A stretch of DNA of 64,000 nucleotides from Calditrichaceae bacterium (GCA_050178385.1 JBFXGD010000001.1:5802-69801); one strand, 5' to 3'. Counted from the stretch's first letter, positions 15,734-39,837 are shown. The notes: generated by a model from the sequence alone, not told the origin. A program made the numbers and translations.

Positions 15734-15735
15734 TA

Positions 15736-20187: not shown

Positions 20188-21468
20188 ATGACAACCATTG
20201 TGAGTCTCATTAAACAAATATATTTCTTTGGCAAAAAAATAACAGTTTATCTGTTGTTGCTTTTTCCTTACTGGTTTGGGTTTTTTGTCCCCAGAAATAA
20301 AAATCTTTGGGTGTTCGGGGCTTGGTTCGGGGAAAGATATTCGGATAACAGCCGCTATGTTTTTGAATATGTAAATAAAAATGAACCTTCGATAAAAGCG
20401 GTTTGGCTGACCAGAAAAAAAGAAATAATCGATGAAGTGCGCAATCAGTCAAGCTCAGCTGAGATGATACGATCCTGGAAGGGATACTGGATGTCATGCC
20501 GGGCAGGCGCGGTAATCGTTACCTGCGATTTAAGGGATGTGAATAGAATCGGTTTATCAAGGGCAAAAATCATTCAGCTCTGGCACGGAACTCCCTTAAA
20601 AAAAATCGGGTTTGACGATAAAATAACCACGAATCCTGACCGGCCGGTCTTTTACACATTACTTAAAAAAATCTGGTATATTCTTTTTCCATTTATGGAA
20701 GACAGATGGGATATGCTTATTTCTCCGAGTGAATTTGTGAGTCAGCGATTATCGTCCGCGTTTAATTTGGATTTATCCAAAATTCCGGTCACCGGATATC
20801 CCCGCGGAGATGTAATTCTTAACCATACGTCCGATCCCCATGTTGAGATCTTCAGAAGTGTAAGGTTTGAGTACAATGTCAAAAACATAATATTCTTTTT
20901 ACCAACCCTTAGGGAAAGGACAACAGGTAAAATAGATCTGTTTCATGATTTAGATTTTGATGCTTTTAATAAGTTTTTAATTGAAAATGATGCCTGGTTT
21001 TTTGTGAAAATGCATTTCTACCATCTCAAAGCTAATAAACCCGGCCTCATGGAAAGAGATCATTCCAGAATCTGGTTTCTTACTGAGCGTGAACTGCCTG
21101 ATATTAATTACGCGCTTCCTGATACGGATATATTGATTACAGATTATTCAAGCGTATTCTTTGATTTTGTGCTTCTCAACCGGCCTGTAATCTTTACTCC
21201 GTTTGATATAAATGATTATCTGGCGAAGGACAGGGAATTTTATGACGATTATGATCGGTTAATCCCGGGGCCTCAGTGCAGAAACTGGGATGAAGTCATG
21301 GAAAAATTATCAGACTTAATAAAGGGAAAAGATAATTATATAGAAAAAAGACTTCATGCGCAGAAACTGTTTAATACTTTTATTGATACGGATAATTCAA
21401 GAAGAGTTGTAAGAGAGATTAATTACATTTTAGGCAAAAACCGGGTTTCAAGGGAACAGCATGATTGA
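20188..21468 (+). CDS. CDP-glycerol/alcohol-phosphate glycerophosphotransferase family protein (TagB/TagF-like)
   Basis: WVFGAWFGERYSDNSRYVFEY, LWHGTPLKKIG and ITDYSSVFFDF are the Glyphos_transf family blocks. Confidence 0.8.
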   Translation: MTTIVSLIKQIYFFGKKITVYLLLLFPYWFGFFVPRNKNLWVFGAWFGERYSDNSRYVFEYVNKNEPSIKAVWLTRKKEIIDEVRNQSSSAEMIRSWKGYWMSCRAGAVIVTCDLRDVNRIGLSRAKIIQLWHGTPLKKIGFDDKITTNPDRPVFYTLLKKIWYILFPFMEDRWDMLISPSEFVSQRLSSAFNLDLSKIPVTGYPRGDVILNHTSDPHVEIFRSVRFEYNVKNIIFFLPTLRERTTGKIDLFHDLDFDAFNKFLIENDAWFFVKMHFYHLKANKPGLMERDHSRIWFLTERELPDINYALPDTDILITDYSSVFFDFVLLNRPVIFTPFDINDYLAKDREFYDDYDRLIPGPQCRNWDEVMEKLSDLIKGKDNYIEKRLHAQKLFNTFIDTDNSRRVVREINYILGKNRVSREQHD

Positions 21469-21565
21469 GTTCTCCTGGCTTTCAAAAATATTGTTTATTA
21501 TTAGTTTTTATTGTGTTCAAAGCGAAAATATCTTTAAATAAAAATGATATTTGGAATTATAAAAG

Positions 21566-22897
21566 ATGACCAAATTTACAAAAATTAGTCTTGGTTTTAT
21601 CATTTTCGCACTACCGCTTCAAATAATTTCCATCTATGTCGGATTCAGTATAATCCTTGTTCGTGTTCTTTTTCTGTCCAGTTTCTTTGTCGCTGTTTTT
21701 CTGATGCTCATAAGAGGGGAGTTGAACATTCCCAAAACTTACATTGATTTAAATATTTTACTTCTTATAATCGCAAATTTTATTATCACATTGTTCGCGA
21801 TAGACGTTCTGCTCAGTCTTAAAGATGCTCTATTGCAGATGTATATAATATTCTTTTTTTACTATATCTACTGGTTGATGAATACAGAAAAATCACTGGA
21901 ATTCGCGGTAAACGCCTATATTTATACTGCAATCATTCTATCTCTGTACGGTGCATTCCAGCAGATTGGTTTTCTATTGGGGTGGGACACAAGAATTCCT
22001 TTCCTGGATTATTTTTCGTACAATGAAGCTCTCAAAGATCCCGCCTCGAAAGATTGGGCTATGGAAGAAATAAGTAGTTTTTTCATTCGTATAAGGGGAA
22101 CATTTTTTGATACAAATACTTTTGCGGGTTATATAGTTAGCGCATTCGGCTTGGCAATCACAAAACTTATCTACTCATATAAGGAAAGAAAAGCTGGAAG
22201 TAAGTTCAAATATTGGTTAATAATTTTCATCTTCTTAATAACGATTCTTTTGACTATGTCGCGTTCAGCCTTGGTGGGTCTCTTCCTATTGTTTATGGTG
22301 ATTCTTTTTTATTATCATAAAGAATTGTTTGGCAGGTTTTTATGGTTGAGGATAATTGTGCCTTTCGTTGTTGTTGCAATATTTGGCATCCTGCTCATAC
22401 CTGATCTTTTAGATCTGATCATTGGGGTTGTTACATCGTTTAGCATGGACAATAAAAACCCTCTTCGGACGAAATCGACAATGCTTCACCTGAAAATAGC
22501 CTTACAGGGAATTGAAATGTTCATTGAGAATCCGATTACCGGTGTCGGCTTAAATAATTTTCGTATAAGCTATGCACACAGTAATCACCTTTGGTACACA
22601 GGATTCACAAATAAAAACATGATGGCTCATAGCGTGTTTTTGTCCTTCTTTTCAGAAGGTGGAATTATAGGTGCAATAGCCAATTATTCAATTATCGGTA
22701 CAATAATATTAAAATCACATAGCCGGATTAAATCGATTTTATCTTCATATAAGAAATCTCAAATGGTAGGCATTTTTGCAGCTTATATTGGTATTCTGGG
22801 ATCGAATATATTTTATCAATATTATTTAAATGAGTTCGTTTGGTTCTTGATTGCGGCAAATGTGGCGGCATTCTATGTATTAAAACCCGATGATTAA
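21566..22897 (+). CDS. O-antigen polymerase/ligase family membrane protein (Wzy-like)
   Basis: 443 aa and very hydrophobic, with at least 10 predicted TM segments. It has the Wzy_C-like block LLTMSRSALVGLFLLF and a large loop before the last TMs. This is the most AT-rich gene in the locus. Confidence 0.6.
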   Translation: MTKFTKISLGFIIFALPLQIISIYVGFSIILVRVLFLSSFFVAVFLMLIRGELNIPKTYIDLNILLLIIANFIITLFAIDVLLSLKDALLQMYIIFFFYYIYWLMNTEKSLEFAVNAYIYTAIILSLYGAFQQIGFLLGWDTRIPFLDYFSYNEALKDPASKDWAMEEISSFFIRIRGTFFDTNTFAGYIVSAFGLAITKLIYSYKERKAGSKFKYWLIIFIFLITILLTMSRSALVGLFLLFMVILFYYHKELFGRFLWLRIIVPFVVVAIFGILLIPDLLDLIIGVVTSFSMDNKNPLRTKSTMLHLKIALQGIEMFIENPITGVGLNNFRISYAHSNHLWYTGFTNKNMMAHSVFLSFFSEGGIIGAIANYSIIGTIILKSHSRIKSILSSYKKSQMVGIFAAYIGILGSNIFYQYYLNEFVWFLIAANVAAFYVLKPDD

Positions 22898-23065
22898 ATT
22901 CATCATAATAATGTATGCTTTAATGTTTTGGAACAGAATAATATTATATCATTCCGATCGTGTGTAAGGCTGATGATGTATAGATTGGCAATAAATGGGA
23001 ATTGAAAATTATGATAATCATTTTTGAGTTACGATCAACAAAAGAAAATATATCAGTTTTCCATA

Positions 23066-24016
23066 ATGAAAAAAAAGATGAGAGATATTAAAGTTAAAAA
23101 GGCTCCAAAAGTCGCCATTGTTATTTTAAATTACATGCGCGCAAATGATACTATCGAATGTATGGAATCGATTCTTAATATTGATTATAAGAACTATGAG
23201 ATTATACTGGTGGATAATCATTCCCGGGATGATTCGGTCGCAAAATTAAAAATGCGTTTTCCGGAATCAGATATTTTTTCAACGGGTGAAAATCTTGGGT
23301 ACACCGGTGGTATAAACTTCGGAGTCAGGAAGGCGCAATCTTTAAAGCCCGAATACATTCTGCTGCTCAATAATGACACCATTGTAGAAAAGACATTCCT
23401 GACAGAACTGGTTCATTCGATGGAGACTTTTCCCGAAGCCGCCGCCATGGGCGGACTGATTCTTGCAGAGCATGACAGACGGACCGTGTGGTATGCGGGT
23501 GGCACGATGATTCCGTGGAGAGGACTAGCGGTTCATAATCACAAAGGGAAAAATATCGAAGATCTTCAATTAAAATCAATCCGGCCGGTCAGCTTTATCA
23601 CAGGATGTATGATCATGTTCAGAGCGGAAAAACTGGATGAAGTTGGCCTTCAGGATGAACGTTTCTTCATGTATCTTGACGATATAGAATACTCAGCAAG
23701 GATGAAAAATAAAGGATTACAGCTTCTTTTCAATCCAAAAGCAATAATTTATCACAAAGTTTTGAACGAGACCGAGAATCCGTTCAAATTGTATTATTCA
23801 GTAAGAAACCGGCTTTTATTGATATCTGTCTCGTGGAAAGGGCTGACACGCTGGAGCGCGGTAATATACTTTCTGACGGTCATATTAGCAAAACTCATAT
23901 GGTGGCGCTTTACAAACAGAAGTTTTTACTCGGCGGGACGTAAAGGGCTGGCCGATTATTTTAATAAAAATTTTTACAAAGGCAACGGCTTCAATTTTCT
24001 GGCATCGGATTTTTAG
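23066..24016 (+). CDS. glycosyltransferase family 2 (COG1216 rhamnosyltransferase-like)
   Basis: VAIVILNYMRANDT, LVDNHSRDDS, LLLNNDTIV and FFMYLDDIEYSARM. ATG 23066 is preferred over the track's TTG 23024. Confidence 0.8.
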   Translation: MKKKMRDIKVKKAPKVAIVILNYMRANDTIECMESILNIDYKNYEIILVDNHSRDDSVAKLKMRFPESDIFSTGENLGYTGGINFGVRKAQSLKPEYILLLNNDTIVEKTFLTELVHSMETFPEAAAMGGLILAEHDRRTVWYAGGTMIPWRGLAVHNHKGKNIEDLQLKSIRPVSFITGCMIMFRAEKLDEVGLQDERFFMYLDDIEYSARMKNKGLQLLFNPKAIIYHKVLNETENPFKLYYSVRNRLLLISVSWKGLTRWSAVIYFLTVILAKLIWWRFTNRSFYSAGRKGLADYFNKNFYKGNGFNFLASDF

Positions 24017-24019
24017 AAT

Positions 24020-24952
24020 ATGACAAAGATGAAACTCACAGATAAAGAAATCGGATCTGTCGCGGCAATTATCCTTAACTATAACGGGTATGAGGATACG
24101 GAAGCCTGCATAAATTCAATCCAGAAGATTTACGGTGATCGGCTGGCAATATATTTGATTGATAACGCGTCAACGGATGGGAGCGGTTTAAAGCTCAAAA
24201 AGAAATTTAGCGCAGTCTCATTTTATGAGCTCGAAGAGAATCGCGGCTATGCCGCCGGGAATAATCTTGGTATTCAAAAAGCGCTATCTGACGGATTTAA
24301 AAATTTTCTTGTACTAAATAATGATATTATTCTTACAGAGGATGTACTGACTCCGTTTCTCGATGAATTTCACTCCGATCCGCAGACAGGAATTGTCACT
24401 TGTAAGGTGTTTTTTACCGGGCCCGAAAAAATAATATACTCAGCCGGCGGCCGCTTTAATAGGTGGATATGCACCGGGGAGAATTTAAAAATTGGTAAAG
24501 CGGATGACGGAATATCTGAAAGGAAAATCATTGATTTTTTTCCGGGAGCTATTTTTCTCATTAAAAAGGAAGTTGTGGATAATGTCGGATTTATGAAAGA
24601 ACACTTTTTCATGTATTATGAAGATCTGGAATATTCTTTTCGTGTGAACCAAATGTACAAAATGGTTTATTTTTCAGATGTAAGTGTTCTCCATGGTTGC
24701 GGCGGTGGAAAAAAAGGCATGGCTTACTCTGCTCTTTATCTATATTATCACACACGTAACCGATTATGGTTATTCAGAGAACGGTCTTTTTTCTATTTCA
24801 TTTATGTTGTATTATTTACGTTTGCGAATTGCATCTGGAAAACCACGGTTGTTTTCAGGGCAGAAAGCGCTAAAAAAGACCGGATGCATAAATTAAAAAA
24901 ACTCTGGAGCGGTTATTTCCATGGGTTATTTGCTCCAACGGTAAAAAAATGA
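24020..24952 (+). CDS. glycosyltransferase family 2 (COG1216-like), paralog of the previous gene
   Basis: AAIILNYNGYEDT, LIDNASTDGS, LVLNNDIIL and FFMYYEDLEYSFRV. Confidence 0.8.
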   Translation: MTKMKLTDKEIGSVAAIILNYNGYEDTEACINSIQKIYGDRLAIYLIDNASTDGSGLKLKKKFSAVSFYELEENRGYAAGNNLGIQKALSDGFKNFLVLNNDIILTEDVLTPFLDEFHSDPQTGIVTCKVFFTGPEKIIYSAGGRFNRWICTGENLKIGKADDGISERKIIDFFPGAIFLIKKEVVDNVGFMKEHFFMYYEDLEYSFRVNQMYKMVYFSDVSVLHGCGGGKKGMAYSALYLYYHTRNRLWLFRERSFFYFIYVVLFTFANCIWKTTVVFRAESAKKDRMHKLKKLWSGYFHGLFAPTVKK

Positions 24953-26169
24953 AAAACGATCAAATAAAAAAACAGCCAGGAATTCGGAAACACCATACAC
25001 CAATGAAAATATTGTTTTTAACATCACGTCTGCCATTTCCTCCAATCGGGGGCGATAAATTGCGGACTTTTAATTTCCTAAGGTATCTAAAGCAAAAATA
25101 TGAAGTAACTCTTATTTCCTTTATAGAAAATGAGACGGAATTGCAAAATATTTCTGAATATCGTAAATACTACGATAAGCTGATCAGTGTCACATTACCA
25201 AAAGTAAATTCGTATAAAAATTCATTTATCGGGTTATTTTCATCAAAACCTCTGCAGGTGCATTATTACAATTCGGATAAAATGCGGAAAGTAATGGAAA
25301 ATGAGCTTAAAAATGGCTATGATGCCGTTTTTTGTCATCTGATCCGTATGGCTCAGTATCTCCCGGAAAGCAAAAACATCAGGAAAGTGGTGGATTTTAC
25401 AGATGCCATTTCATTGAATTATGAGCGGAGTAAACAATTCCGGAAAGGATTGTTCTCCATTATTAATTATGTGGAAGCAAAGCGCGTTTACCATTACGAA
25501 CAATCAGTGATAAAAAAATCGTACAGATCAATATTTATATCAGACATAGATGCGGATTTCCTCAGAAATGATCAAAATACAGACAAGATAAATATTGTAG
25601 CAAACGGGGTTGATCTGGATATGTTTCAGTTCTACGCAGGCGCTTACAAGCCTAATCAGATTTGTTTTGTCGGTAATATGAGAACATTTCCCAATACGGA
25701 CGCGGTAAACTATTTTGTAAAAGAAGTGTTTCCAATACTAAAAAGGGTAAATAAAGAGCTGAAATTTTATATCGTCGGCAATGAGCCTCCGGCTGAAATA
25801 AGGAATTTGCATAATGCTAAAGATATTATTGTCACAGGATTTGTGGAATCAGTAATTCCCCATATCACCAATTCCGCGGTTTTAGTCGCGCCGATGAGAG
25901 TAGGCGCGGGAATACAGAACAAGATATTGGAAGCAATGGCCCTGGGCACGCCGGTGGTGACAACCACAATCGGGGCGGAAGGGCTGAATAATGATATGGC
26001 GCTTATCGGGGACACTCCCGAAGAGCTGTCGGATAAGATATTATCCATCTTAAATGACAGAGAGTTACGGAGGGATAAAGCCCGGGCAGCAAGGGAATAT
26101 ATTGAGAAAAATTTCAGATGGGAAAAAGTATTTAAAGATCTTGAAGAAAATTTTGTTTATTCTGATTGA
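24949..26169 (+). CDS. glycosyltransferase family 4 (GT-B, Glycos_transf_1)
   Basis: MKILFLTSRLPFPPIGGDKLR N-terminal block and the C-terminal GT-B EX7E region (APMRVGAGIQNKILEAMALGTPVV). An ATGA overlap links it to the upstream GT2. ATG 25003 is an alternative start. Confidence 0.8.
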   Translation: MKNDQIKKQPGIRKHHTPMKILFLTSRLPFPPIGGDKLRTFNFLRYLKQKYEVTLISFIENETELQNISEYRKYYDKLISVTLPKVNSYKNSFIGLFSSKPLQVHYYNSDKMRKVMENELKNGYDAVFCHLIRMAQYLPESKNIRKVVDFTDAISLNYERSKQFRKGLFSIINYVEAKRVYHYEQSVIKKSYRSIFISDIDADFLRNDQNTDKINIVANGVDLDMFQFYAGAYKPNQICFVGNMRTFPNTDAVNYFVKEVFPILKRVNKELKFYIVGNEPPAEIRNLHNAKDIIVTGFVESVIPHITNSAVLVAPMRVGAGIQNKILEAMALGTPVVTTTIGAEGLNNDMALIGDTPEELSDKILSILNDRELRRDKARAAREYIEKNFRWEKVFKDLEENFVYSD

Positions 26170-26215
26170 AACCGAAATTAAAAATAGTAAACATTAATGG
26201 AATAATTGCTGGAGA

Positions 26216-27910
26216 ATGGATTTGAAAAAACTATTTATTGTGCTGGTTCTGCTGATAAATCTCTCGGTTTATGCCGGTAATCCGGTAAGCGTGCCCATTA
26301 ATCATCCAATTTATGATTTTTTTGATCGTATGGAAACGATGGGGTATCTAAATCGCCTTTTGGACGGAATTCGGCCATACAGCCGTGGCCGGGCGGCGGA
26401 TATACTGCTGCAGCTTAATGAGAAACGCGACGAATTAACTTCAATCGATAGACGAAGACTGGATGATTATTTACTGGATTTCAGATTTGAAATAGATCGT
26501 TCTCAAAAATATTCGGAAGCGCCTGATGGCAAAAACTGGTATTCGGTGTTTTCCGGATGGGGAACTTTCAAGAAAGACTTTAACCGGTTCTTTAAACAGA
26601 ATCACCCCGAGGAAGAAAATCACGTATTTCTGTGGGAATCGGGAGGAAGTAACTTCTATTTTGATTATCAGCAAAATTTTACATATGAACAGAGATCGGA
26701 TGATGTGACGAGGGATGCCAATTGGCAGACCTACCAGGTGCGGGGGTTGATTGATGATAATTTCGGGTATGCCGTGGAGGTTAGTCTTTATGCCTTGCGC
26801 GGTGACGAGTCCTATGTCGGGGAACATCCAATACTCAAAGGCGCGTGGAGCAAGCTTCATGAAAATGAAACCAGATATGCGGACAGAACCGGCGGGGAAC
26901 TGGCCTGGCATAACAGGTATTTTGATTTTACCTTTGCTCAGCAGGAAATTGAATGGGGGCCGGGTGAATCAGGTAAATTAACACTTTCCAATAACCCGGA
27001 GCACTATCCCTACGTGAGTATTTCGAAGGATTGGGGATGGGGGAAGTTTATCGCTTTGCACGGGAAATTACAATCGTTTCCCGAGGACACAAGTACTAGC
27101 GGGGAACCGCTGTATCCGGATAAGTGGCTGGCCGCTCATCGTCTTGAGTTTGCTCCCTGGAAAAGTTTGACTATTGGTATCAATGAAAATTTTATTTACG
27201 GCTACCGATACGCGGACTGGTCCTATCTGGTGCCTTTTAACTTTTACAGAGCAACACAGCATAATTTGCGCGACCGCGATAATGCCACAATTTCCATTGA
27301 TTTCGAATGGGTTGCGCGCTCGGGAAGCAAACTCTACGGTACGTTATTTCTGGATGAGTTCAAACGAAGTAAATTATTCACGGACTGGTATGGAAATAAG
27401 CACGCCTTTTTAATCGGTTTGCATCAGACTGATCCGTTCGGGATCGAAAACTTATCTGTGCGGTTGGAATACACGGCCATTATGCCATGGGTATATACGC
27501 ATAAGTATCCCATTAACAGTTACACAACTGATTATCAATCTCTTGGTCACTGGGCCGGTCCTAATTCTGAAGTGTATTATGCCCATGTGTCCAAAGACTG
27601 GCACCAGCGTTTAACAACCGGATTTATATTTCAGCAGTATAAACATGGCGATAATTATGAGAATGAAAATATCGGCGGTGATATTCTGCTGGGGCACAAT
27701 GATTTGTTGGGTGAACAGGAAAGCGCGAGGGAAACCCGGGATTTTCTTGAAGGTAATTTGACCACAGAACAAAAGTATGAAGCATATCTAAAATATGAAG
27801 TTTTTAATGATCTGTTTTTAACATTCGTCTATGATCATTTTGATATAGAAAGCGGCGGAACCAAAACCAAATTAGATGAATTTCATTTTGGGTTTGAATT
27901 ACGATATTAG
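26216..27910 (+). CDS. outer-membrane beta-barrel protein, probably capsule-assembly Wzi family
   Basis: Signal peptide, then an N-terminal helical block (HPIYDFFDRMETMGYLNRLL..IRPYSRGRAADILL) as I remember for Wzi-family proteins. Aromatic-rich alternating beta-strand pattern, and a C-terminus FGFELRY ending in an aromatic residue. At 564 aa it is longer than classical Wzi. Confidence 0.5.
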   Translation: MDLKKLFIVLVLLINLSVYAGNPVSVPINHPIYDFFDRMETMGYLNRLLDGIRPYSRGRAADILLQLNEKRDELTSIDRRRLDDYLLDFRFEIDRSQKYSEAPDGKNWYSVFSGWGTFKKDFNRFFKQNHPEEENHVFLWESGGSNFYFDYQQNFTYEQRSDDVTRDANWQTYQVRGLIDDNFGYAVEVSLYALRGDESYVGEHPILKGAWSKLHENETRYADRTGGELAWHNRYFDFTFAQQEIEWGPGESGKLTLSNNPEHYPYVSISKDWGWGKFIALHGKLQSFPEDTSTSGEPLYPDKWLAAHRLEFAPWKSLTIGINENFIYGYRYADWSYLVPFNFYRATQHNLRDRDNATISIDFEWVARSGSKLYGTLFLDEFKRSKLFTDWYGNKHAFLIGLHQTDPFGIENLSVRLEYTAIMPWVYTHKYPINSYTTDYQSLGHWAGPNSEVYYAHVSKDWHQRLTTGFIFQQYKHGDNYENENIGGDILLGHNDLLGEQESARETRDFLEGNLTTEQKYEAYLKYEVFNDLFLTFVYDHFDIESGGTKTKLDEFHFGFELRY

Positions 27911-27978: not shown

Positions 27979-30411
27979 ATGACATTTATAATGGTTTTCA
28001 TTTTCGGATTGGCAATGGCGTTGCTGGCGACTTATTTAACGCAAAAAATTGCCACAAAGCATTCCATCGGAACTTATCCGGACGGGAGGATGGTGCATCT
28101 GGGATTTATCCCGCATATGGGAGGTATAGGCTTCATTTCCGGATTTGCGGGGGGAATACTTCTGCTGTTTGGATTAAATGAACAATTGTTTTTTGAAATT
28201 ATTTCCGGATATGGGGCCATACTTACCGGCTCACTTCTCATAGTTATTCTGGGTGTTTATGATGATCTAAAGGGATTAAATGCTGTTAAAAAATTTTCAG
28301 GACAGTTTATAGCCGCTTCAATTGTTATTTTTATGGGCTGTAAAATTGATATTCTTGTTTTTCCCATGGGACACTCAATATCCCTGGGGATTATGTCGGT
28401 TCCATTTACTTACCTCTGGTTCATAGGTGTCAGCAATGCGGTCAATCTGCTCGATGGACTGGATGGATTGGCAGCCGGCGCGGGAATCATCGCGTCTTCA
28501 GCCATCGCGTTAATCGCCTGGCAATCAGCGGATTATGTAACATTCGCGGTGATTATTTCATTGATTGCCGGTCTGCTGGGGTTTTTAAAATTCAATCATC
28601 ATCCGGCTTCCATTTTTATGGGTGATACGGGTTCATTATTCTTAGGATTTATTCTCGCCGCAATTTCAATAAGAGGATTTGAGAGTCAGCCGGGAAATAT
28701 TTCGCTGTTGATTCCATCCATCGCGCTGGCAGTACCGATAAGTGATACAAGTCTGGCCTTTTTCAGGCGGCTAAATGGAGGACATCATCCTTTTAAAGCT
28801 GACAAAGATCACCTCCATCACCGACTAATATTTTTAGGTTTGACCCACAGTCAGGCTGTTTATATCATCTACGGCATTTCGGCCTTATCCGCTTTAACGG
28901 CATTTACAGTGGCGACCCAGTCTACCGTTGCGGGTGGTGTAATGTTTATATTAACCTTAACACTGTCAGTCCTGGGTCTTAAACGTCTGGGTTATCTTGA
29001 AGCGCAAAAAAGTAAGACCTATTACGGGGATGAAAAAATTATCCGGGCCAGACACCAGATCGCTCCGCTGTCAATGCGCCGGATACAGCATCGTTTAATG
29101 ATTGGAATATCCGATGTTATTATGATAAACACAGCGCTGGTTGTTACCTGGTGGGTCAGATTTCAATCCGGTATGATTAAAGTCAGCAGACCTGTTCCGT
29201 TGGATGAATTTATCTTTACGCCCGTTACACTGATCATTACTCTGCTCTGGATAACTTTATTTCTTGTCAATAATCTCTATAACATGTACTGGGATGTTTC
29301 CCGGTTTGATAAAGTACAACGCGTTAACAAGACTGTTTTGTTTGGGATTGTCATTCTGTATTTAGTGACCCTGGACCCCAGTAACATGTTTACTGAAGGA
29401 CGGATCGCGATTCTGATTTACGGTTTTTGCGTAATTTTCTTCGTAAATTTCGGCAGGCTGAATATAATTGGTTTTGAAAAAAGATATAAACTGCTCGAAT
29501 ACGCGCCGCATAACACGCTGCTGATCGGCTCATCCGAGAAGGGAAAGAAGATATTAAAGGACATTAGAAAAAATCCGCATTTACTCTATAACATTGTCGG
29601 ATATATTTCTAAAAATCCATCAGAGAAAAAATTTTATGAACTGGATTCACTGGGAGTCTATAAAGACATTCCTGATATCATAAGAAAATTTGAAATAGAA
29701 GAAGTGGTTATCGCAATTAATGAGCGCTCCAGGGATGAGGTTTTGAATATCGTTTCTTTTGCTGAAAATATGAATGTAGTATTCAAAATTGTCCCGGAGA
29801 TATACGACGTGGTATCCGGTCTTAAGACGGAAGAAGTCATAGGCCATCCGCTGATCCGTTTATTCCCGGAACATATGTTTTTATGGCAATGGATATTAAA
29901 AAGAATTTATGATGTGATACTGGCTGCTGCGGTAGCGCTGATATTTAGCCCTGTCGCCTTGCTCATAATTTTCCTTCTGTTTCTATCCGGAAATTATCCG
30001 CCTCTGATCATTCAAAATATGGTTGGCAGAAATGGCCGTCTTTTCGGGAAGCTCAATTTTAACGTCGGAGAAAAGAACACCTATGTCCAAAAGCTGCTTT
30101 TCAATACACGATTGTACAAAGTTCCCGAAATTATGAATGTTTTGCTTGGTCAGATGAGTTTTGTCGGGCCGCGTCCTGAGATGCCGGAAGAGGTTGACCA
30201 TTTAAGAGGAAAAATTAAGTTTTATAATCGCCGTTTTCAGATCCGGCCGGGAATTACCGGATGGGCACAGGTGAAATTCCGGTATGATGAATCATTGCAT
30301 CATAAAAGAGAGCAATTCAAACAAGATCTGTTTTATCTGGAAAATATGTCACTGACATTTGATTTTAGAATATTATTGCGCTCGACAGTCATATTCTTAA
30401 CGAACCGATGA
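27979..30411 (+). CDS. fusion: WecA/MraY-type polyprenyl-phosphate GlcNAc-1-P transferase (N) + WbaP-type 4TM/Rossmann/sugar-transferase module with degenerate catalytic motifs (C)
   Basis: aa 1-340: about 10 TM segments with VYDDLKG, NAVNLLDGLDGLA, MGDTGSLFLGF and DKDHLHHRL. aa 370-810: 4 TM segments, LLIGSSEKGKKILKDI..VVIAINE, KRIYDVILAAAVALIFSPV, SFVGPRPE and RPGITGWAQV. However, KFRTM reads KLNFNV and the DE-dyad segment reads LYKVPE. Confidence 0.75.
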   Translation: MTFIMVFIFGLAMALLATYLTQKIATKHSIGTYPDGRMVHLGFIPHMGGIGFISGFAGGILLLFGLNEQLFFEIISGYGAILTGSLLIVILGVYDDLKGLNAVKKFSGQFIAASIVIFMGCKIDILVFPMGHSISLGIMSVPFTYLWFIGVSNAVNLLDGLDGLAAGAGIIASSAIALIAWQSADYVTFAVIISLIAGLLGFLKFNHHPASIFMGDTGSLFLGFILAAISIRGFESQPGNISLLIPSIALAVPISDTSLAFFRRLNGGHHPFKADKDHLHHRLIFLGLTHSQAVYIIYGISALSALTAFTVATQSTVAGGVMFILTLTLSVLGLKRLGYLEAQKSKTYYGDEKIIRARHQIAPLSMRRIQHRLMIGISDVIMINTALVVTWWVRFQSGMIKVSRPVPLDEFIFTPVTLIITLLWITLFLVNNLYNMYWDVSRFDKVQRVNKTVLFGIVILYLVTLDPSNMFTEGRIAILIYGFCVIFFVNFGRLNIIGFEKRYKLLEYAPHNTLLIGSSEKGKKILKDIRKNPHLLYNIVGYISKNPSEKKFYELDSLGVYKDIPDIIRKFEIEEVVIAINERSRDEVLNIVSFAENMNVVFKIVPEIYDVVSGLKTEEVIGHPLIRLFPEHMFLWQWILKRIYDVILAAAVALIFSPVALLIIFLLFLSGNYPPLIIQNMVGRNGRLFGKLNFNVGEKNTYVQKLLFNTRLYKVPEIMNVLLGQMSFVGPRPEMPEEVDHLRGKIKFYNRRFQIRPGITGWAQVKFRYDESLHHKREQFKQDLFYLENMSLTFDFRILLRSTVIFLTNR

Positions 30412-30417
30412 GATATC

Positions 30418-32505
30418 ATGTCAAGTCAGAAAACAGTAATCAGTATAATTATCGTTAACTACAATGTGCGGGATTTTCTTGAGCAGGCGTTGATTTCAGT
30501 AAAACGGGCGCTTGAGAACATTACATCAGAGATTATTGTTGTCGATAATGCATCCATCGACGGATCTGTACAGATGCTCCAGAATCGATTCCCTGATGTA
30601 AAAATTATCGAAAACGATAAAAATTTGGGCTTTTCCGCCGCTAACAATCTCGCGTTGAAAGATGCCCATGGGGAATACATTGTATTATTGAATCCGGATA
30701 CGTTGGTTCAGGAAGACACCTTTAAAAAGCTGATTCAATTTTTTGAACAAAATCCTGATGCTTCGGCCGCCACTTGTAAAATTTTGAATCCTGACGGGAC
30801 TTTCTCTATAGACTGCCGCCATAGTATTCCCACACCAATGACGGCATTCTGGAAACTGATAGGATTTAATCGTCTTTTTCCAAAAAGTAAAATATTCGGC
30901 CGTTATAACCTGACCTGGCTTGATGAAAATCAAATCTACCAGGTTGAGGCAATATCAGGTTCATTCATGATGATAAAGAGCGGGGTTGTTCAGAAAGTCG
31001 GGTTGCTGGATGACCGGTTTTTTATGTATTGCGAAGACATTGATTACTGTCACCGGATAAATCAGTCCGGCGGAAAAATCTATTATGTTCCGACATCTCA
31101 GCTAATCCACTATAAAGGAGAAAGTACAAAGAAAAACAATCTGGATTATGTCGTCACGTTTAACAAATCGCTCTATTTGTTTTACAAAAAACACTATCAG
31201 CAAAAATATATCTATCCCTTTAAATGGTTAATTCTTCTTGGAGTCATCTTGAGGGGGATGATGATCTTTATCAGAAATTTTGCCGCCGCTTTTTATCCAT
31301 TTATGCTGGATTTGCTGATAATGAACGGAACGTTGTTTTTAAGTTTCTATCTCCGTTATGAAATTAGAGGAGATTTTACTCTCCATGATTTTTTCAGTGA
31401 CTATATTATTATTAACTTAATAACATCGGCCGCCTACTTCATCTCATCCCTGTTTTTCGACAGTATGGACAGAGACAGATATTCTTTGATTAAAGTGTTT
31501 AAGGCCAACCTGCTCACCTATACGTTTGTCTCAGCATTGACATTTTTTTTCAAACAGTTTGCCTTCTCGAGGCTTGTAGTGCTTTTTACGGCATTTATCA
31601 GCACATCGTTGATGCTTATCTGGAGGATCGGTCTTAGATATTACGGCAGAAAGTATTCGGAAGTTCTCAGAAAAGATTTGTTCGCAAAACGGGCGCTGAT
31701 AGTAGGATTGGATGATGATACGCAAAACCTGCTTATAAAATTAAATAAACGCGTCGATTCTTCAATTGAAATTGTCGGATTGATTTCTCCTGACCGGAAA
31801 GATATCGGCAAAAAAATCGCGGGGTTTCCAATCGTCAGCTCCATACAACAACTACCTGAATTTTTAAGACTTAACAAGATTAACCTGGTCATTTTCTCCA
31901 CACATAATATTTCATATAAATCCATTTTAACCGCCATGGCAAATGTTGAAAACTCTCATATCGAGTTTAAAATGGTACCCGGACATCTGGAATTTATGGT
32001 AGGTAAATCAAATATTGAGCGGCTTGACAATATGCCGCTGGTGGATATAGAATACGCGTATGGTAAACTTTTCAACCGCTTTGTAAAAAGATCTGCCGAT
32101 ATTTTTACATCGTTTATAATCCTGATCTTTCTTCTGCCTGTCGCTTTGCTTTTCCTGCCGTTTAAAATTGGAAAAATAGGCAGAAAACAGGTCCATCAAG
32201 GTAAGAATAATATCAAAACCATTTTGTGGGACCCCCATAAAGGATTTTTCCGCTTTATTTTAAATCTGATAAATATATTATCCGGAAAAATATCACTGGT
32301 GGGCGCGCCGATGGAGAAGGATGGGAAACGGGAGCAGCAGTTTGATTATAAACCCGGGCTGACGGGGATCATTCAAATCAATAAAAACAAGATTACGGAT
32401 GATCAGATATTTGAGAATTTTGAACTGCATTATCTCAAAAATCAGAATTTTTTGCTCGATGTCGAAATTATATACAGGGCGCTATTTTTAAGAAAAGAAA
32501 GATGA
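30418..32505 (+). CDS. fusion: GT2 glycosyltransferase (N) + WbaP-like 4-5TM/Rossmann/vestigial sugar-transferase module (C)
   Basis: aa 1-250: ISIIIVNYN, VVDNASIDGS, LLNPDTLV and FFMYCEDIDYCHR. aa 260-695: TM segments, ALIVGLDDDTQNLLIKL..IVGLISPD, FKMVPGHLEFMVG and KRSADIFTSFIILIFLLPVALL. The tail is shortened, with LVGAPME in place of LVGPRPE, followed by KPGLTGIIQI. Confidence 0.7.
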   Translation: MSSQKTVISIIIVNYNVRDFLEQALISVKRALENITSEIIVVDNASIDGSVQMLQNRFPDVKIIENDKNLGFSAANNLALKDAHGEYIVLLNPDTLVQEDTFKKLIQFFEQNPDASAATCKILNPDGTFSIDCRHSIPTPMTAFWKLIGFNRLFPKSKIFGRYNLTWLDENQIYQVEAISGSFMMIKSGVVQKVGLLDDRFFMYCEDIDYCHRINQSGGKIYYVPTSQLIHYKGESTKKNNLDYVVTFNKSLYLFYKKHYQQKYIYPFKWLILLGVILRGMMIFIRNFAAAFYPFMLDLLIMNGTLFLSFYLRYEIRGDFTLHDFFSDYIIINLITSAAYFISSLFFDSMDRDRYSLIKVFKANLLTYTFVSALTFFFKQFAFSRLVVLFTAFISTSLMLIWRIGLRYYGRKYSEVLRKDLFAKRALIVGLDDDTQNLLIKLNKRVDSSIEIVGLISPDRKDIGKKIAGFPIVSSIQQLPEFLRLNKINLVIFSTHNISYKSILTAMANVENSHIEFKMVPGHLEFMVGKSNIERLDNMPLVDIEYAYGKLFNRFVKRSADIFTSFIILIFLLPVALLFLPFKIGKIGRKQVHQGKNNIKTILWDPHKGFFRFILNLINILSGKISLVGAPMEKDGKREQQFDYKPGLTGIIQINKNKITDDQIFENFELHYLKNQNFLLDVEIIYRALFLRKER

Positions 32506-36030: not shown

Positions 36031-36067
36031 GTCAGGCGATACAAACTCTGTTTCTGCCTGACTTTTT
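36031..36067 (+). terminator. Rho-independent terminator of upp, embedded in the last codons of the convergent GGDEF gene
   Basis: GTCAGGC (36031-36037) / GCCTGAC (36056-36062) with an inner AAAC/GTTT mini-stem, then TTTTT (36063-36067). The same bases read on the minus strand encode ...AKKSGRNRVCIA-stop. Confidence 0.55.
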
Positions 36068-37675
36068 CGCTTTATAGAGAGCCTGATCAGCGCGTTCGAT
36101 AAGATCCTCCATATCGGTTCCGTCATCAGGAAAATTAGCCAGACCGATACTGACTGTCAGTTTTCCAAGAGGCTGATATTGCTGCAGGTTGAATTCGAAA
36201 TCTTCTATTAAGTTGTGAAGCTTTTGGGCAATCCAGATGGCGTTCTGTTTATCCAGACCCGGAAGTATAATTACAAATTCTTCCCCTCCGTATCTCGCTA
36301 CCGTATCAATACTCCTGGTGTTCTCTGACAGAATTAGGCTGACCTGACAGAGAATTTTATCTCCTTCGGGATGCCCGTGACGGTCATTGTAATCCTTAAA
36401 ATGATCGATATCGATGATCAAAAGGGAAAATGGGGTTCTGAAACGCTTTCCGCGATTCATTTCCCGTTCCAGCTGCTGTATAAAATAGCGGTAATTGTAT
36501 ATTTTCGTGAGCCCGTCGGTGATTGCCTGTTGTTCCTTTATCTTATACAATTTCATCAATTTATGATAGAGAATCATATTTTCATAAATAATTCCGATGG
36601 TTTGAATAAAGGATTTTAGAATCCGTACTTCGTATGTTGCAAAATCCTGTTCTGTTTTACCCTTATCTATAAAGATTAAATAACGTTTTGGCATCTGCAG
36701 CTCGAGTTTCTCGTCGGACGTCACATTTGACGCGATATTCGCAAATATTTCAGTGGTCTCTTTTTTTACAGCCAGATTAGATAGATTGCCTAAAATAAAT
36801 GACTCTGTCTGCAAATTTTTTGCGAGGCTCAAGAGTGATGGTTCAAGGATTTCAGAGAGATTTTTGATCCAGATAATTCCGCCGTCGTTTTTAAGATATG
36901 TCAAAAATTCAGGCTTATATTTAAAACTTTTCTTATGAATTGATGGACCCGTGACGCCTTCGAATGAAAAGGGGATGAGCCTCCTCTTAACAGTGTCAAG
37001 CTCAAAAGAAATACACCTGTCAACCTTAAAACCCTCAATAATTTTTTCAGGCAGTATTTTCAGAAGCGCTGCCGGATCTCTTTGTGTCCTCAAAAAATTA
37101 GCCACGTTGTTAAGATAAAATAACCGGTCATTGTACCGGGCAAGATCCTGATGTGACTCATACAATTCTTTGTTGACCTTTGTAAGATTTTCATTGAGAG
37201 ATTCCAATTCAAGAAGTTTTCTGCGTAATTTCTCAACAAGCTGGACATTATACTTCTGTAAAAATTTCTTTTCTTTTTCAGGTGAGATAAAATCTTTTTT
37301 ACCGGAAAGATATTCTTCGATCTTAAATAAAAACTCGGTGACATTTATAGGTTTTGAGATATAACCGTCGCACCCCGCGGCGAGAGTTAAGTTCCTGGCA
37401 TCACGATGCATTTCTCCTGTCAGGGCTATTATGGGTGTGTCCTTGATATCCGACAGACTTTTTAAATGGGTAGTGACCTCGTATCCCTGCATATCGGGCA
37501 GTCGTAAATCCACAAGAATTAAATCCGGTTTATGTTCAATGGCCATCTGGATACCATCCAGACCCCGGGCAGCCTCATAAAACTGATAGCCTTTATACCT
37601 GATGATATCAGCCATTAATGATCTGGTTTCCGGATCGTCCTCGATATAGAGTATTTTTTTTGTGTCGATACTCAT
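36032..37675 (-). CDS. response regulator with REC, GAF-like and GGDEF (diguanylate cyclase) domains
   Basis: REC: ILYIEDD, LILVDLRLPDMQG, ALTG and KPI. A coiled-coil and a GAF-like middle region follow. The GGDEF domain has an intact RYGGEEF and the I-site RSID five residues upstream. Confidence 0.85.
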   Translation of the reverse strand: MSIDTKKILYIEDDPETRSLMADIIRYKGYQFYEAARGLDGIQMAIEHKPDLILVDLRLPDMQGYEVTTHLKSLSDIKDTPIIALTGEMHRDARNLTLAAGCDGYISKPINVTEFLFKIEEYLSGKKDFISPEKEKKFLQKYNVQLVEKLRRKLLELESLNENLTKVNKELYESHQDLARYNDRLFYLNNVANFLRTQRDPAALLKILPEKIIEGFKVDRCISFELDTVKRRLIPFSFEGVTGPSIHKKSFKYKPEFLTYLKNDGGIIWIKNLSEILEPSLLSLAKNLQTESFILGNLSNLAVKKETTEIFANIASNVTSDEKLELQMPKRYLIFIDKGKTEQDFATYEVRILKSFIQTIGIIYENMILYHKLMKLYKIKEQQAITDGLTKIYNYRYFIQQLEREMNRGKRFRTPFSLLIIDIDHFKDYNDRHGHPEGDKILCQVSLILSENTRSIDTVARYGGEEFVIILPGLDKQNAIWIAQKLHNLIEDFEFNLQQYQPLGKLTVSIGLANFPDDGTDMEDLIERADQALYKAKKSGRNRVCIA

Positions 37676-37838
37676 GGATCTCTGATTATTTTGATGGTCT
37701 GGATATGACAGCCGAACAAGAATGCAAACAATTTTACCGGAATTCGGATTTTCAATTCAAGAAAGTAAACTATCCTGGTTAAAAAATCAAGCAGGATCGC
37801 TTGCAGGGGACATTTATTTATTAAATATCCCTTGTTGC

Positions 37839-39755
37839 TCAGAGATGTTTGCAAATCAACAAAGTAATATCGTCTGCCGGATTTTCAAATTCAGCAAAAT
37901 CTCTCAGTGCATTAGTGATTTCTTGTTTAATCTGATGCACTGACATCTCTTGATTGGATTTAACGATTTCAATAATGCGGTTTTCTCCAAATTCTTCCTC
38001 AAGATGATTCATGGTTTCGCTGACGCCATCGGTATAAGCGACAAGAATATCACCTTGTTTAAATTCAACCTCTTCCTGGATATAATCCTGATCGCCTATA
38101 AAACCGAGAACGATACCGCCTTTGGTGAGATGTTTAACCTCTCCGCCCGCACTGATTAGTATCGGGGGATTATGTCCGGCATTGGTATATATCACCTTAT
38201 GATTTTCCATGTCTATAATACCATAGAACAGTGTGGCGTATTTGCCTTCTATTGTGGTCTGACAGAGCAGATTGTTTAATCGGTTGACCACATCGCAGGC
38301 GGTCATAAAAGTCTTGTTTTGCGTGCGGAAGCCCGCGAGTATCAAAGTCATCATCAGTGCCGCTGGCGCGCCTTTGCCGGAAACATCACCGATAATAAAA
38401 CCGAGAGTAGTTTCATTGAATTTGATAACATCGTAGAGATCACCGCTTACGAGTTTACTTGGTATGTTCTCGGCCGTCAGCCGGAGATCTTTTAGTTTCG
38501 GAAGCTGTTTTATAAGTAAATCCCGCTGAACCATACTGGCGTTTATCAACTCATGTTCATAAGCTTGTTTTGCGAGTCTTATATCAAGCTGGCGGGCGTT
38601 GTGTATTGCTATAGCCGCCTGATTGGCAAAAATATTCAGTATGTCCACCTGGTTTTCGTTAAAGTAATTTAATTTGTTACTTTCCATGCATATGACCCCA
38701 AGAACAGTTTCTTCAAATATCATCGGAATAGAGATCTGGGATTTTGTATTTTTACGTATTTCGAGATAATGCTCTGACATACGAACATCATCAATGATGT
38801 CAATTTTTTTTGATTCAACGACCCAGCCGCAGGCGCCCTGGCCGACTTTAAGATGAAGCCGGTCGGCTACTCCTGAATCATAGCCCCGGCTGCTTGTGTT
38901 TAATAGATTTTTACCTGATTTATCCACAAGGAAAATGGCGGCGGCATCAAAATTAATCAATGACTGAAGAGAATTGAGTATAAAATCGAGAATATCTTTG
39001 GTATTTAAAGATGAAAGGATGCGCTGACTGACTTCAATCAGTTTACGTGTTTCAAAGTTTTTTTTCTCCAAATCAACAAAGAGTCCGGTGTTTTCAAGTA
39101 TTAATCCGCCCTTACGCTGTATTTTTTGGAATAGCAACCGGGTCGGTTTGTCCCGGTAAAAACGAACTTTTTTAATATTCACCAATAGAAAAGCAAATGT
39201 CTGATTATGGCCATGAAAAGGCAGCAGCGCGTATAATTTGGACTTTTTAAATTCAAGGGCAAAGGATTCCGGCAGCCGCAAGGTGGTGATATAATCTTCA
39301 ATCAGAAGGGTTTCCGGCTGGATTGGTCTGAAGTATGAAGCGTCAAGACCAAGAGTCATCAACTCACCGTCATTCAGATTACCCGAGAAAGCCGGATAGA
39401 ATTTGTTGTTCTCGAAGATATAAAAGGCATAAGCGACATCCCTGAATATTTTCTTAAACGAATCTTCAAGCTCATGCGTCACCTCGTGGTAGCGGAAGGA
39501 GCGGTTTAGCTTCATATTCAGGGTTTCGAGAGTCTGCTGAACATGATTGAGCAGATAATAGTAGTGCTTGTTTACAAATCGTCTGACAATCAGCTTTAAT
39601 TTATCATGAAACAGGATAATCAAGGCCAGTGTAATGGCTATCGGCGGCAGAAAAGACAGGTTGTCAGCTGCTGCCTGTACCAGATAAAGGAGTAATGTTA
39701 AGAGGAGATATATCAGATAGAGAATTATTGACTCAATAATATCATATTTCGACAA
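37839..39755 (-). CDS. membrane-anchored GAF + PP2C/SpoIIE-type serine phosphatase (RsbU-like)
   Basis: Two N-terminal TM segments, an unassigned region of about 200 aa, a GAF domain (ILDFILNSLQSL..AAAIFLVD), then a PP2C domain (GDLYDV, GDVSGKGAPAALMM, YTDGVSE, DDITLL). TTG start 5 nt behind AAGGAG. Confidence 0.8.
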   Translation of the reverse strand: MSKYDIIESIILYLIYLLLTLLLYLVQAAADNLSFLPPIAITLALIILFHDKLKLIVRRFVNKHYYYLLNHVQQTLETLNMKLNRSFRYHEVTHELEDSFKKIFRDVAYAFYIFENNKFYPAFSGNLNDGELMTLGLDASYFRPIQPETLLIEDYITTLRLPESFALEFKKSKLYALLPFHGHNQTFAFLLVNIKKVRFYRDKPTRLLFQKIQRKGGLILENTGLFVDLEKKNFETRKLIEVSQRILSSLNTKDILDFILNSLQSLINFDAAAIFLVDKSGKNLLNTSSRGYDSGVADRLHLKVGQGACGWVVESKKIDIIDDVRMSEHYLEIRKNTKSQISIPMIFEETVLGVICMESNKLNYFNENQVDILNIFANQAAIAIHNARQLDIRLAKQAYEHELINASMVQRDLLIKQLPKLKDLRLTAENIPSKLVSGDLYDVIKFNETTLGFIIGDVSGKGAPAALMMTLILAGFRTQNKTFMTACDVVNRLNNLLCQTTIEGKYATLFYGIIDMENHKVIYTNAGHNPPILISAGGEVKHLTKGGIVLGFIGDQDYIQEEVEFKQGDILVAYTDGVSETMNHLEEEFGENRIIEIVKSNQEMSVHQIKQEITNALRDFAEFENPADDITLLICKHL

Positions 39756-39837
39756 AACTACTCCTTTGTTCTGGGCGTAAATATAGAGAAAACCCGGATT
39801 ATATTCAATAATTGATGGGTGGCGAACAAAGATTCTT

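Follow-up and report, generated by a model that had tools for sequence, protein, structure and literature searches.

A tandem pair of candidate glycan-assembly proteins built on catalytically dead WbaP-type tails in Calditrichota

Why should two neighbouring genes with different catalytic heads end in the same kind of membrane-bound tail, and what job can such a tail have once its own chemistry is gone? This question is raised by two genes, here called A and B, which follow one another in a 64,000-nucleotide (nt) stretch of DNA from a Calditrichaceae bacterium (the window; all positions are counted from its start). Open reading frame (ORF) A at 27979-30411 encodes a protein of 810 residues and ORF B at 30418-32505 a protein of 695 residues. 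Both are on the plus strand, and the spacer between the stop codon of A and the start codon of B (30412-30417) is 6 nt long. Pfam, homologues and AlphaFold2 (AF2) models show that A has a WecA/MraY-type head of the PNPT family followed by a catalytically dead tail of the large monotopic phosphoglycosyl transferase (Lg-PGT) type, of which WbaP is an example, and that B has a family 2 glycosyltransferase (GT2) head with a GT-A fold followed by a more eroded dead tail of the same type. The explanation that appears probable on balance is that A and B are two active membrane-bound pathway enzymes, which sit on independently recruited, dead WbaP-type chassis that have been kept for a non-catalytic job.

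Dead catalytic sites in conserved tails

The C-terminal ~430 residues of A and B align end to end (BLASTP: 22% identity over 436 residues, E = 1e-11, 55 bits), and six peptide pairs fall in register in this alignment, namely IVGYIS/IVGLIS, VVIAI/LVIFS, FKIVPEIYDVVSG/FKMVPGHLEFMVG, HPLIRL/MPLVDI, KRIYDVIL/KRSADIFT and PGITGWAQV/PGLTGIIQI. An earlier note on this DNA had described two adjacent genes that share a C-terminal module, and its coordinates, the 6-nt gap and all six peptide pairs are confirmed. A phmmer comparison of the two tails of the window gives no match. Profile-profile comparison by hhalign matches the A-tail and B-tail families at 99.9% probability, indicating that the homology of the tails is far beyond chance.

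The catalytic Asp-Glu dyad of monotopic PGTs (monoPGTs) is absent from both tails. HMMER alignment with the structures of PglC (8G1N/8E37) and WbaP places the segment LYKVPEIMNVL of A on LDELPQLFNVL of PglC, with Tyr713-Lys714 (30115-30120) at the position of the dyad, and NFNV of A on KFKTM of PglC, with N-F-N replacing K-F-K. Among 112 full-length homologues of A, the residues at the dyad position are Tyr in 103 and Lys in 101 (~92%), and the Asp-Glu pair occurs in 0 of 112; a 39%-identical protein from the related locus L016 has Tyr-Arg there. Other motifs of the A domain, which are KRxxD, the helix-breaking Pro, GPRP, RPGxTGWAQ and DxxYxENxS, are almost invariant in the same alignment, the Arg of GPRP being found in 98 of the 112 sequences. 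The tail of B, examined with 117 homologues, has no dyad (Phe-Arg in a shortened segment), GAP instead of PRP and no KFKTM segment, and ~45 residues of the core are gone. It retains KRxxD, the re-entrant helix with its Pro, G.xSxVGAP, YKPGLTG and YLKNQ. The claim of the earlier note that the tails had lost the motifs for PGT chemistry therefore stands for the dyad, which is missing from both, and fails for GPRP and PGITGWAQV, which A still has.

The loss of the dyad extends to distant relatives. None of ~65 divergent GT2-plus-tail representatives has the Asp-Glu dyad and only one, P0287, has the PRP motif, and every canonical Lg-PGT of 444-483 residues has LDELPQ...VGPRP. In P0287, a GT2-plus-tail protein of 761 residues, GPRP is retained and L-E-K-W replaces L-D-E-L at the dyad; this protein may mark a halfway state in the decay of the PGT domain among B-type proteins. 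Neither A (225.7) nor B (150.7) reaches the cut-offs of the NCBIfam models TIGR03025, TIGR03023 and TIGR03022 (295.55).

The ratio of nonsynonymous to synonymous substitution rates (dN/dS) was calculated between the window and its 91%-identical relative, locus L001, at a dS of 0.5-0.9. For A and B, respectively, it is 0.072 and 0.059 in the catalytic head, 0.059 and 0.053 in the four transmembrane (TM) helices, 0.033 and 0.019 in the Rossmann-like domain known as DUF (domain of unknown function), and 0.088 and 0.119 in the pseudo-PGT domain, where dS is 0.5-0.8. Purifying selection is strong on all tail modules. It is strongest on the DUF, which in both proteins is constrained even more tightly than the catalytic head. 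Since dN/dS is low in every module, the tails are better regarded as pseudoenzyme domains with a job than as decaying remnants, and a decaying relic is rejected on these ratios. As far as can be read from sequence, the tails would fit the general definition of a pseudoenzyme, which combines homology to an enzyme, absence of essential residues and purifying selection. In agreement with the earlier note, which had taken both tails for WbaP-type modules that had lost the motifs for PGT chemistry, the dN/dS of the tail modules is 0.02-0.12 and their predicted folds match WbaP and PglC.

Domain organization and predicted folds

The head of A (residues 1-336, 27979-28986) is an 11-helix polytopic phosphotransferase domain, as judged from motifs, Foldseek and phmmer, the last of which matches it to the structures of MraY and GPT. 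Pfam finds Glycos_transf_4 (PF00953) at residues 80-232 (6e-40), with 137.2 bits against a cut-off of 27. The motifs YDD, NxxNLLDGLDGL, IFMGDTGS and DKDHLHHRL are intact and, like NAVNLLDGLDGLA, are 90-100% conserved among the 112 homologues, and D95, D96, D159, D162 and D216 are invariant in the family. The score with the WecA equivalog TIGR02380 (116.9 bits) is below the cut-off of 326.05, and the cut-off of the MraY equivalog is likewise missed, so that A is assigned to the PNPT family with no implication of GlcNAc specificity.

The head of B (residues 1-260, 30418-31197) is a GT-A fold glycosyltransferase according to its motifs and structural matches. Glycos_transf_2 (PF00535) covers residues 9-129 (3e-25; 89.7 bits against a cut-off of 23.3), and related GT2 models extend to about residue 240. 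The motifs VVDNAS.DGS, NLGFSAANN, LLNPDT, FFMYCEDIDYCHR and HYKGES are conserved at 0.9 or above among the 117 homologues, and so is YCEDIDYCHR, which together with VVDNAS.DGS and LLNPDT represents the DxD-type and catalytic-base motifs of a GT2. The match to the rhamnosyltransferase model TIGR01556 (WbbL-type) is weak (51.5 bits, below the cut-off of 200.55), and B is not a WecG/TagA homologue by NCBIfam. Across both families the catalytic motifs are intact, which agrees with the earlier note in its reading of one head as a WecA-like PNPT and of the other as a GT2.

AF2 monomer models built from the family alignments have a predicted local distance difference test score (pLDDT) of 83.3 and a predicted TM-score (pTM) of 0.76 for A, and of 78.9 and 0.60 for B. 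The model of A shows 11 helices (residues 2-336), a linker, four helices (366-503), an alpha/beta domain (511-604), hairpin-like strands, a re-entrant helix and an alpha/beta core. The linker (residues 337-365, 28987-29073) has the basic sequence KSKTYYGDEKIIRARHQIAPLSMRRIQHR, is modelled with low confidence (pLDDT 54-61, below 50 at residues 340-343) and is presumably cytoplasmic from the predicted topology. The four TM helices of the Lg-PGT chassis occupy residues 366-503 (29074-29487; helices 366-396, 408-430, 442-463 and 473-503) and align to WbaP (8T53). They are followed by the DUF at residues 504-612 (29488-29814), which is identified by its alpha/beta pattern and by CoA_binding_3 (PF13727, residues 444-606), and by a beta-hairpin-like element at residues 613-634 (29815-29880) with strands 617-619 and 626-628. 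G614 and H623 in this region are invariant in the family, and the element would occupy a position equivalent to that of the dimer-swapping hairpin of WbaP. The pseudo-PGT domain at residues 635-810 (29881-30408), which is matched by Bac_transf (PF02397, residues 641-806, 1e-33), by HMMER alignment to PglC and by Foldseek, consists of the re-entrant helix 635-669 and a PglC-like core. Since 11 TM helices are followed by four, the topology of A is coherent; all soluble domains are predicted to lie on one, presumably cytoplasmic, face, and the fusion would be topologically sound.

In the model of B, the GT-A domain is followed by four long helices, an alpha/beta domain, low-confidence hairpin-like strands, a re-entrant helix and a shortened core. 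The helical membrane segment equivalent to the bundle of four TM helices spans residues 266-413 (31213-31656; helices 266-317, 322-346, 357-377 and 385-413) and also aligns to WbaP (8T53). The DUF lies at residues 424-520 (31687-31977), where an alpha/beta pattern coincides with CoA_binding_3 (PF13727, residues 355-521, 3e-18), and is followed by the hairpin-like strands 526-528 and 533-535 (residues 526-535, 31993-32022), with a pLDDT below 50 at residues 531-545. K518, P521, G529, K530 and E534, which flank this hairpin, are nearly invariant. The remnant PGT domain, delimited by alignments to WbaP and PglC, comprises residues 551-695 (32068-32502) with the re-entrant helix at 551-586, and the Bac_transf match within it is partial, covering residues 616-689 and only profile positions 93-174, which are the C-terminal half.

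Foldseek comparison with the PDB places WbaP among the top three structural matches of both proteins (8T53_A, E = 5.6e-15 over 448 columns for A; 8T53, E = 3.9e-12 over 422 columns for B). The model of A also matches MraY chains with TM-scores of 0.78-0.81, PglC with a TM-score of 0.81 and a root-mean-square deviation of 2.5 Å, and the UDP-D-quinovosamine 4-dehydrogenase structure 3nkl with a TM-score of 0.74 over ~125 columns, a match assigned to the DUF by its size. The model of B also matches GT-A enzymes.

Origin, distribution and possible job of the tails

The earlier note had supposed that one WbaP-type gene was duplicated, disabled and reused as a pair of matching scaffolds. Profile comparison argues against this. 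The hhalign scores of whole tails against canonical Lg-PGTs are 574 for A and 495-577 for B, and those of A against B are 245-350; with the chassis only (four TM helices plus DUF), the scores are 288, 339 and 148, respectively. The chassis of a third protein family, WecA-type proteins that have no PGT domain, scores 179 with canonical Lg-PGTs, 83 with A and 71 with B. When the B tail was compared exhaustively with 1.8 billion cluster representatives, it matched ~65 full-length GT2-plus-tail proteins, down to 22% identity, with canonical Lg-PGTs next at 84-108 bits, and no A-type protein was found within the top 150 matches. In a neighbour-joining tree of the four TM helices and DUF, the A clade is recovered in 200 of 200 bootstraps; the deeper nodes are uninformative at distances of 2.5-2.9, near saturation, and nothing unites A with B. 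The lesions also differ, since A has point changes (DE to YK) and B has a deletion and loss of PRP. Finally, B-type genes without a nearby A-type gene, and PNPT-on-chassis genes without an adjacent B-type gene, are found in other phyla. As far as similarity tells, the tails are thus not each other's closest relatives, an outcome which the earlier note had itself set against its proposal. With profile scores, lesions and independent taxonomic distributions counting against it, the derivation of matched scaffolds from one duplicated dead gene is unlikely. Because the tails are nearer to canonical Lg-PGTs and each architecture occurs without the other, independent recruitment fits better, and the simplest reading of the sequences would be that early-pathway enzymes have recruited the Lg-PGT chassis repeatedly and independently. 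Loss of PGT activity would have followed recruitment, and some lineages would have gone on to lose the whole PGT domain.

Each of the two architectures is represented by at least 120 clusters of 48-92% identity with the same Pfam content, and the named ones are from Calditrichota or Caldithrix. A scan of a genome collection with the A protein gave three true relatives, the other six being plain WecA genes. A metagenome scan with the A alignment, whose patterns are generic WecA motifs, gave L016 and two further loci, L064 and L065, and 76 of its 80 loci were ordinary WecA. A is directly followed by B in all eight Calditrichota-type loci (the window, L001-L003, L010-L012 and L016), down to 39% identity, and the pair is thus not restricted to one assembly. 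At least 35 further contigs, of identical length in each case, are common to the match lists of A and B, which is indirect evidence that they carry both genes. The most divergent pair, at L016:3962-8589 (plus strand) in the 1.59-Mb contig Ga0207422_1000005, has an A gene in an 852-residue stop-to-stop ORF, and its pseudo-PGT domain keeps a longer core segment around the Tyr-Arg pair.

The arrangement in the window, where A and B share a reading frame and only TGA plus two codons (30409-30420) lie between them, would fit a single gene split by a sequencing error or by stop-codon read-through, and the in-frame 6-nt spacer is found in L001 as well. However, the spacing across the loci is -4, -4, +6, +6, +20, about +26 and +104 nt and the frames vary among relatives, showing that A and B are two genes and not one split gene. 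Moreover, they form two separate families of stable length, and B-type genes stand alone in other phyla. The split-gene explanation, whose probability is negligible, is refuted by these comparative data. The same spacings suggest that A and B may often be translationally coupled.

Outside Calditrichota the two architectures part company. The distant named B-type proteins belong to KSB1, Gemmatimonadota and Marinimicrobia, and no A-type gene was found near them in any of the three phyla within the 3-8 kb examined on either side. In L013:8001-11149, L014:6067-9114 and L015:3017-6189 (Gemmatimonadota, KSB1 and Marinimicrobia), the gene for GT2 plus dead PGT is followed immediately by accA, which encodes the alpha subunit of the acetyl-CoA carboxylase carboxyltransferase, and in two of the three loci it is preceded by a small GT2 gene of 239-253 residues; the accA neighbourhood is a conserved, housekeeping-like context. 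The third architecture, a WecA-type PNPT with four TM helices and CoA_binding_3 but no PGT domain (630-680 residues), is identified by Pfam at L064:1998-3971 and L065:279-2297 (plus strand) and is also found at L096:7001-8944, L097:7001-8929 and L098:7001-8998. This family comprises at least 120 clusters, from Ignavibacteria/Melioribacter, Kryptoniota and Latescibacteria. Its genes belong to Wzz/Wzy loci and immediately follow a Wza-like gene, with a WecG-type transferase in two of three, and no B-type gene is adjacent to them in the three loci.

In the window, the pair closes a glycan locus that Pfam scans place at 14645-27910 on the plus strand. The pair stands at the conserved edge of this variable locus and adjoins serS in the window, L011 and L012. 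The locus contains genes for a UDP-GlcNAc 2-epimerase, a Wza-like exporter, Wzz/GNVR, an NTP-transferase plus HAD protein, a TagF-like glycerophosphotransferase, a Wzy-like protein, two GT2 enzymes, one GT-B enzyme and a Wzi-like protein. The epimerase gene (14645-15733) thus belongs to the same Gram-negative-type Wza/Wzz/Wzy/Wzi capsule locus as the segment at 18594-21468 (plus strand), which encodes a fused NTP-transferase and HAD-phosphatase (520 residues) and a TagF-like CDP-glycerol glycerophosphotransferase (426 residues). The occurrence of TagF-like, NTP-transferase/HAD and UDP-GlcNAc 2-epimerase genes together suggests that the product of the locus may be a teichoic-acid-like, phosphate-containing polymer. 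No flippase of the Wzx/MurJ type (Polysacc_synt) was found by Pfam among the scanned ORFs of at least 120 residues in 14645-27910 and 190-41610 (a few excepted, e.g. 4793-5239); the flippase may be encoded elsewhere or be too divergent for detection. Just downstream, at 36032-41610 on the minus strand, a response-regulator-GGDEF gene is followed by two genes for GAF-SpoIIE (PP2C phosphatase) proteins. This trio is conserved in L011 and L012 and could be a cyclic di-GMP or partner-switching regulatory unit for polysaccharide genes.

No PGT or PNPT homologue besides A and B was found anywhere in the 64-kb window. The earlier note had stated that the locus has no stand-alone initiating transferase, and this is true of the window; it does not hold for L011, where a gene for a PglC-like small PGT lies just upstream of the pair. 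There, L011:5675-9906 (plus strand) encodes this stand-alone protein of 187 residues together with PglD-, PglE- and PglF-like proteins of a di-N-acetylbacillosamine (diNAcBac)-type pathway, and the A protein is 49% identical to that of the window. By its sequence, the L011 genome would have an active monoPGT adjoining dead ones. Since L011 has its own PglC-like small PGT, the pair is not simply "the" initiating enzyme of the upstream polymer.

WbaP is a homodimer formed through a swap of the DUF beta-hairpin and through TM helix 3, and its DUF binds uridine mono-, di- and triphosphate (UMP, UDP and UTP); UMP inhibits WbaP with a half-maximal inhibitory concentration of 4.1 uM (PMC10942596). 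In the explanation preferred here, A and B would both belong to the cytoplasmic phase of glycan assembly on undecaprenyl. A would be a WecA/TagO-like polytopic phosphotransferase that most likely makes undecaprenyl-diphosphate-linked N-acetylhexosamine (Und-PP-HexNAc) and releases UMP, and the initiating reaction would have passed from the monotopic domain to the polytopic head of the same chain. B would be an inverting GT2, and the position of its gene next to A suggests that it adds the next sugar, probably as the second step. The chassis, consisting of four TM helices, a Rossmann-like DUF that would bind uridine nucleotides and dimerise, a hairpin, a re-entrant helix and a PGT-like core, would most probably serve in positioning at the pool of undecaprenyl phosphate (Und-P), in dimerisation and in feedback sensing of UMP and UDP, as the DUF of WbaP does. 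Feedback by uridine nucleotides is proposed because UMP is a product of the PNPT reaction, and the GT2 reaction likewise sets free a nucleoside diphosphate. For the dead PGT domain a structural part is envisaged, which might include the binding of a lipid phosphate.

Several points weigh against this explanation. The closeness of both tails to canonical Lg-PGTs is a similarity argument made at distances near saturation, and the same scores could arise if the two tails were very old sisters that have since diverged fast. All the best NCBIfam GT2 matches of B are far under their cut-offs. Tyr-Lys and GPRP/PGxTGWAQ are strongly conserved in A, which hints at a specific ligand-binding role of its tail beyond positioning or regulation. 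Strict adjacency in all eight loci, with 4-nt overlaps in two of them, is equally expected for the subunits of one complex, and a picture of homodimers only may therefore be incomplete. A complex of this kind, which the earlier note had proposed, would form if the dead tails paired as a WbaP-like pseudo-symmetric heterodimer that holds the PNPT and the GT2 together, with Und-PP-HexNAc handed from A to B and the pseudo-PGT pockets perhaps acting as Und-PP-sugar sites. The order of A then B in every locus, mostly with a 4-nt overlap or a spacer of at most 26 nt, suggests co-translation; both tails keep the four TM helices, DUF and hairpin that make up the dimer interface of WbaP (PMC10942596), the re-entrant helix and KRxxD, by which a PGT is positioned at the pool of Und-P, are present in both pseudo-PGT domains, and the window has no other initiating enzyme. 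Nevertheless, an operon of consecutive pathway steps explains the adjacency equally well, B-type genes without an A-type gene within 3-8 kb and PNPT-on-chassis genes without an adjacent B-type gene each occur in three phyla, and the two tails, at 22% identity, are each nearer to the canonical, homodimeric Lg-PGTs. The heterodimer is thus a credible but clearly secondary candidate. Its most explicit form, in which the Calditrichota proteins build a heterodimer through hairpin-swapped DUFs and TM bundles, hold Und-PP-sugar in the disabled PGT pockets (where Tyr-Lys stands in for the dyad and the re-entrant helix and PRP/PGxTG motifs persist) and pass the product from PNPT to GT2 inside the complex, seems rather unlikely. 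If true, it would be an initiation metabolon built from pseudoenzymes and would show what the accessory chassis of Lg-PGTs is for.

The remaining explanations differ in how much activity they leave to the tails. The tail of A might still be alive, with Tyr-Lys performing a modified chemistry (for example through a phospho-tyrosyl intermediate, by transfer without a metal or in a reaction akin to that of a pyrophosphatase), so that A would be an initiating enzyme with two functions. The conservation of Tyr-(Lys/Arg), in 103 and 101 of the 112 homologues and as Tyr-Arg at 39% identity, would agree with this, as would the near invariance of the substrate-binding motifs GPRP, RPGxTGWAQ and DxxYxENxS, the superposition of the core on PglC at 2.5 Å and the dN/dS of 0.088. 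However, A has neither the Asp nucleophile nor the Mg-binding Glu, it has also lost the basic residues of KFKTM (N-F-N), such chemistry in a PGT fold is without precedent in the literature searched, and sister lineages do without the PGT domain entirely, which makes a living tail very improbable. At the other extreme, the tails could be relics, either decaying or generic membrane anchors, so that their homology would mean tethering only. Relics would be expected to look like the PGT remnant of B, which is shortened and has the lowest conservation within the protein (mean column conservation 0.38-0.59), and to disappear altogether, as the PGT domain has in the PNPT fusions of sister phyla. Against this stand the dN/dS of 0.02-0.12 in the tail modules, the cytoplasmic DUF more constrained than either head and the many cytoplasmic tail residues that are invariant across families sharing ~50% identity; in addition, a plain anchor needs no 300-residue cytoplasmic alpha/beta apparatus conserved in at least four phyla. 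Relic tails are accordingly improbable, if marginally less so than a living tail in A.

Significance and comparison with known systems

Two active enzymes on independently recruited dead chassis, which is the explanation preferred here, would bear on an open question, namely the function of the accessory domains of Lg-PGTs, the most abundant class of PGTs. A and B are a natural experiment in which the function of the chassis is separated from PGT catalysis, since the chemistry is gone and the chassis, the DUF above all, is more constrained than the working heads. Three catalytic domains that are unrelated to one another but act in one phase of the pathway carry the chassis, namely a polytopic PNPT, a GT2 and a dehydratase. 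A combines two non-homologous PGT superfamilies in one chain, the polytopic one apparently displacing the monotopic one in place, an arrangement that is undescribed as far as found, and sister phyla show the PGT domain deleted. Several source databases label these proteins "sugar transferase", and both such annotations and censuses based on PF02397 count non-enzymes as initiating PGTs. The proteins offer a handle on the function of the accessory domains of Lg-PGTs, and on UMP sensing, dimerisation and possible substrate channelling.

Lg-PGTs, BiPGT fusions, WecA-type PNPTs and the portable module of four TM helices plus DUF are all already described. In the accessible literature, a scope that excludes the founding 2021 PNAS network paper, no report was found of systematically dead yet conserved monoPGT domains, of a monoPGT-type chain with a polytopic PNPT attached, of the conserved Tyr-Lys substitution or of the tandem pairing in Calditrichota.

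Both tails have the architecture of Lg-PGTs by Pfam, AF2 and Foldseek, that is, four TM helices, PF13727 and PF02397 with a re-entrant helix, and the order of modules is the same as in WbaP of Salmonella enterica (PDB 8T53), CpsE, WcaJ and EpsZ. They differ from these enzymes in that the Asp-Glu dyad (D93-E94 of PglC, in DE(L/I)PQ) is missing in A and B, that PRP and a portion of the core are in addition absent from B, and that A and B add an N-terminal catalytic domain of ~260-340 residues. The dimer of a Myxococcus Lg-PGT has been described as a regulatory target (PMC12802240). The BiPGT class, in which a monoPGT core is fused to a glycosyltransferase, an acetyltransferase or another enzyme (O'Toole et al. 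2021, as cited in PMC11626204 and PMC10942596), resembles A and B in joining a pathway enzyme, here a PNPT or a GT2, to a monoPGT-family domain in one chain. In BiPGTs, however, the PGT domain is taken as the active initiator, whereas it is dead in every A and B member examined. Because the catalytic feature of Lg-PGTs and BiPGTs fails in them, A and B are not to be filed as PGTs on account of their tails; judged by sequence motifs, the head places A in the PNPT family and B among the GT2 enzymes.

A precedent for the chassis on a non-PGT catalytic domain is provided by the membrane-bound NDP-sugar 4,6-dehydratases of the PglF/CapD/WbpM type. The module of four TM helices plus DUF is present on PglF-like dehydratases, and this sharing has been called "puzzling" (PMC10942596). 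The catalytic domain of these enzymes is C-terminal and no PGT-like domain is present, whereas A and B have an N-terminal catalytic domain and have kept the dead PGT domain. L011 encodes a PglF-type protein (Polysacc_synt_2, 627 residues) right upstream of the pair, and this protein has weak matches to both tails.

The head of A shares four signature motifs and 11 predicted TM helices with WecA, TagO and MraY, and its TM-score to structures of MraY is ~0.8. Ordinary WecA, TagO and MraY are stand-alone proteins of ~320-380 residues, whereas A carries a 470-residue C-terminal tail of the Lg-PGT type. In two-step priming systems, such as WecA with WbbL, which make the GlcNAc-Rha linker in mycobacteria and E. 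coli O16, or TagO with TagA/WecG, a PNPT is followed by a second transferase to give a lipid-linked disaccharide. Parallels to such systems are the UDP-GlcNAc 2-epimerase and TagF-like genes of the window and the WecG genes near two of the three PNPT-on-chassis genes of sister phyla. By analogy, A followed by B would obey the same logic.

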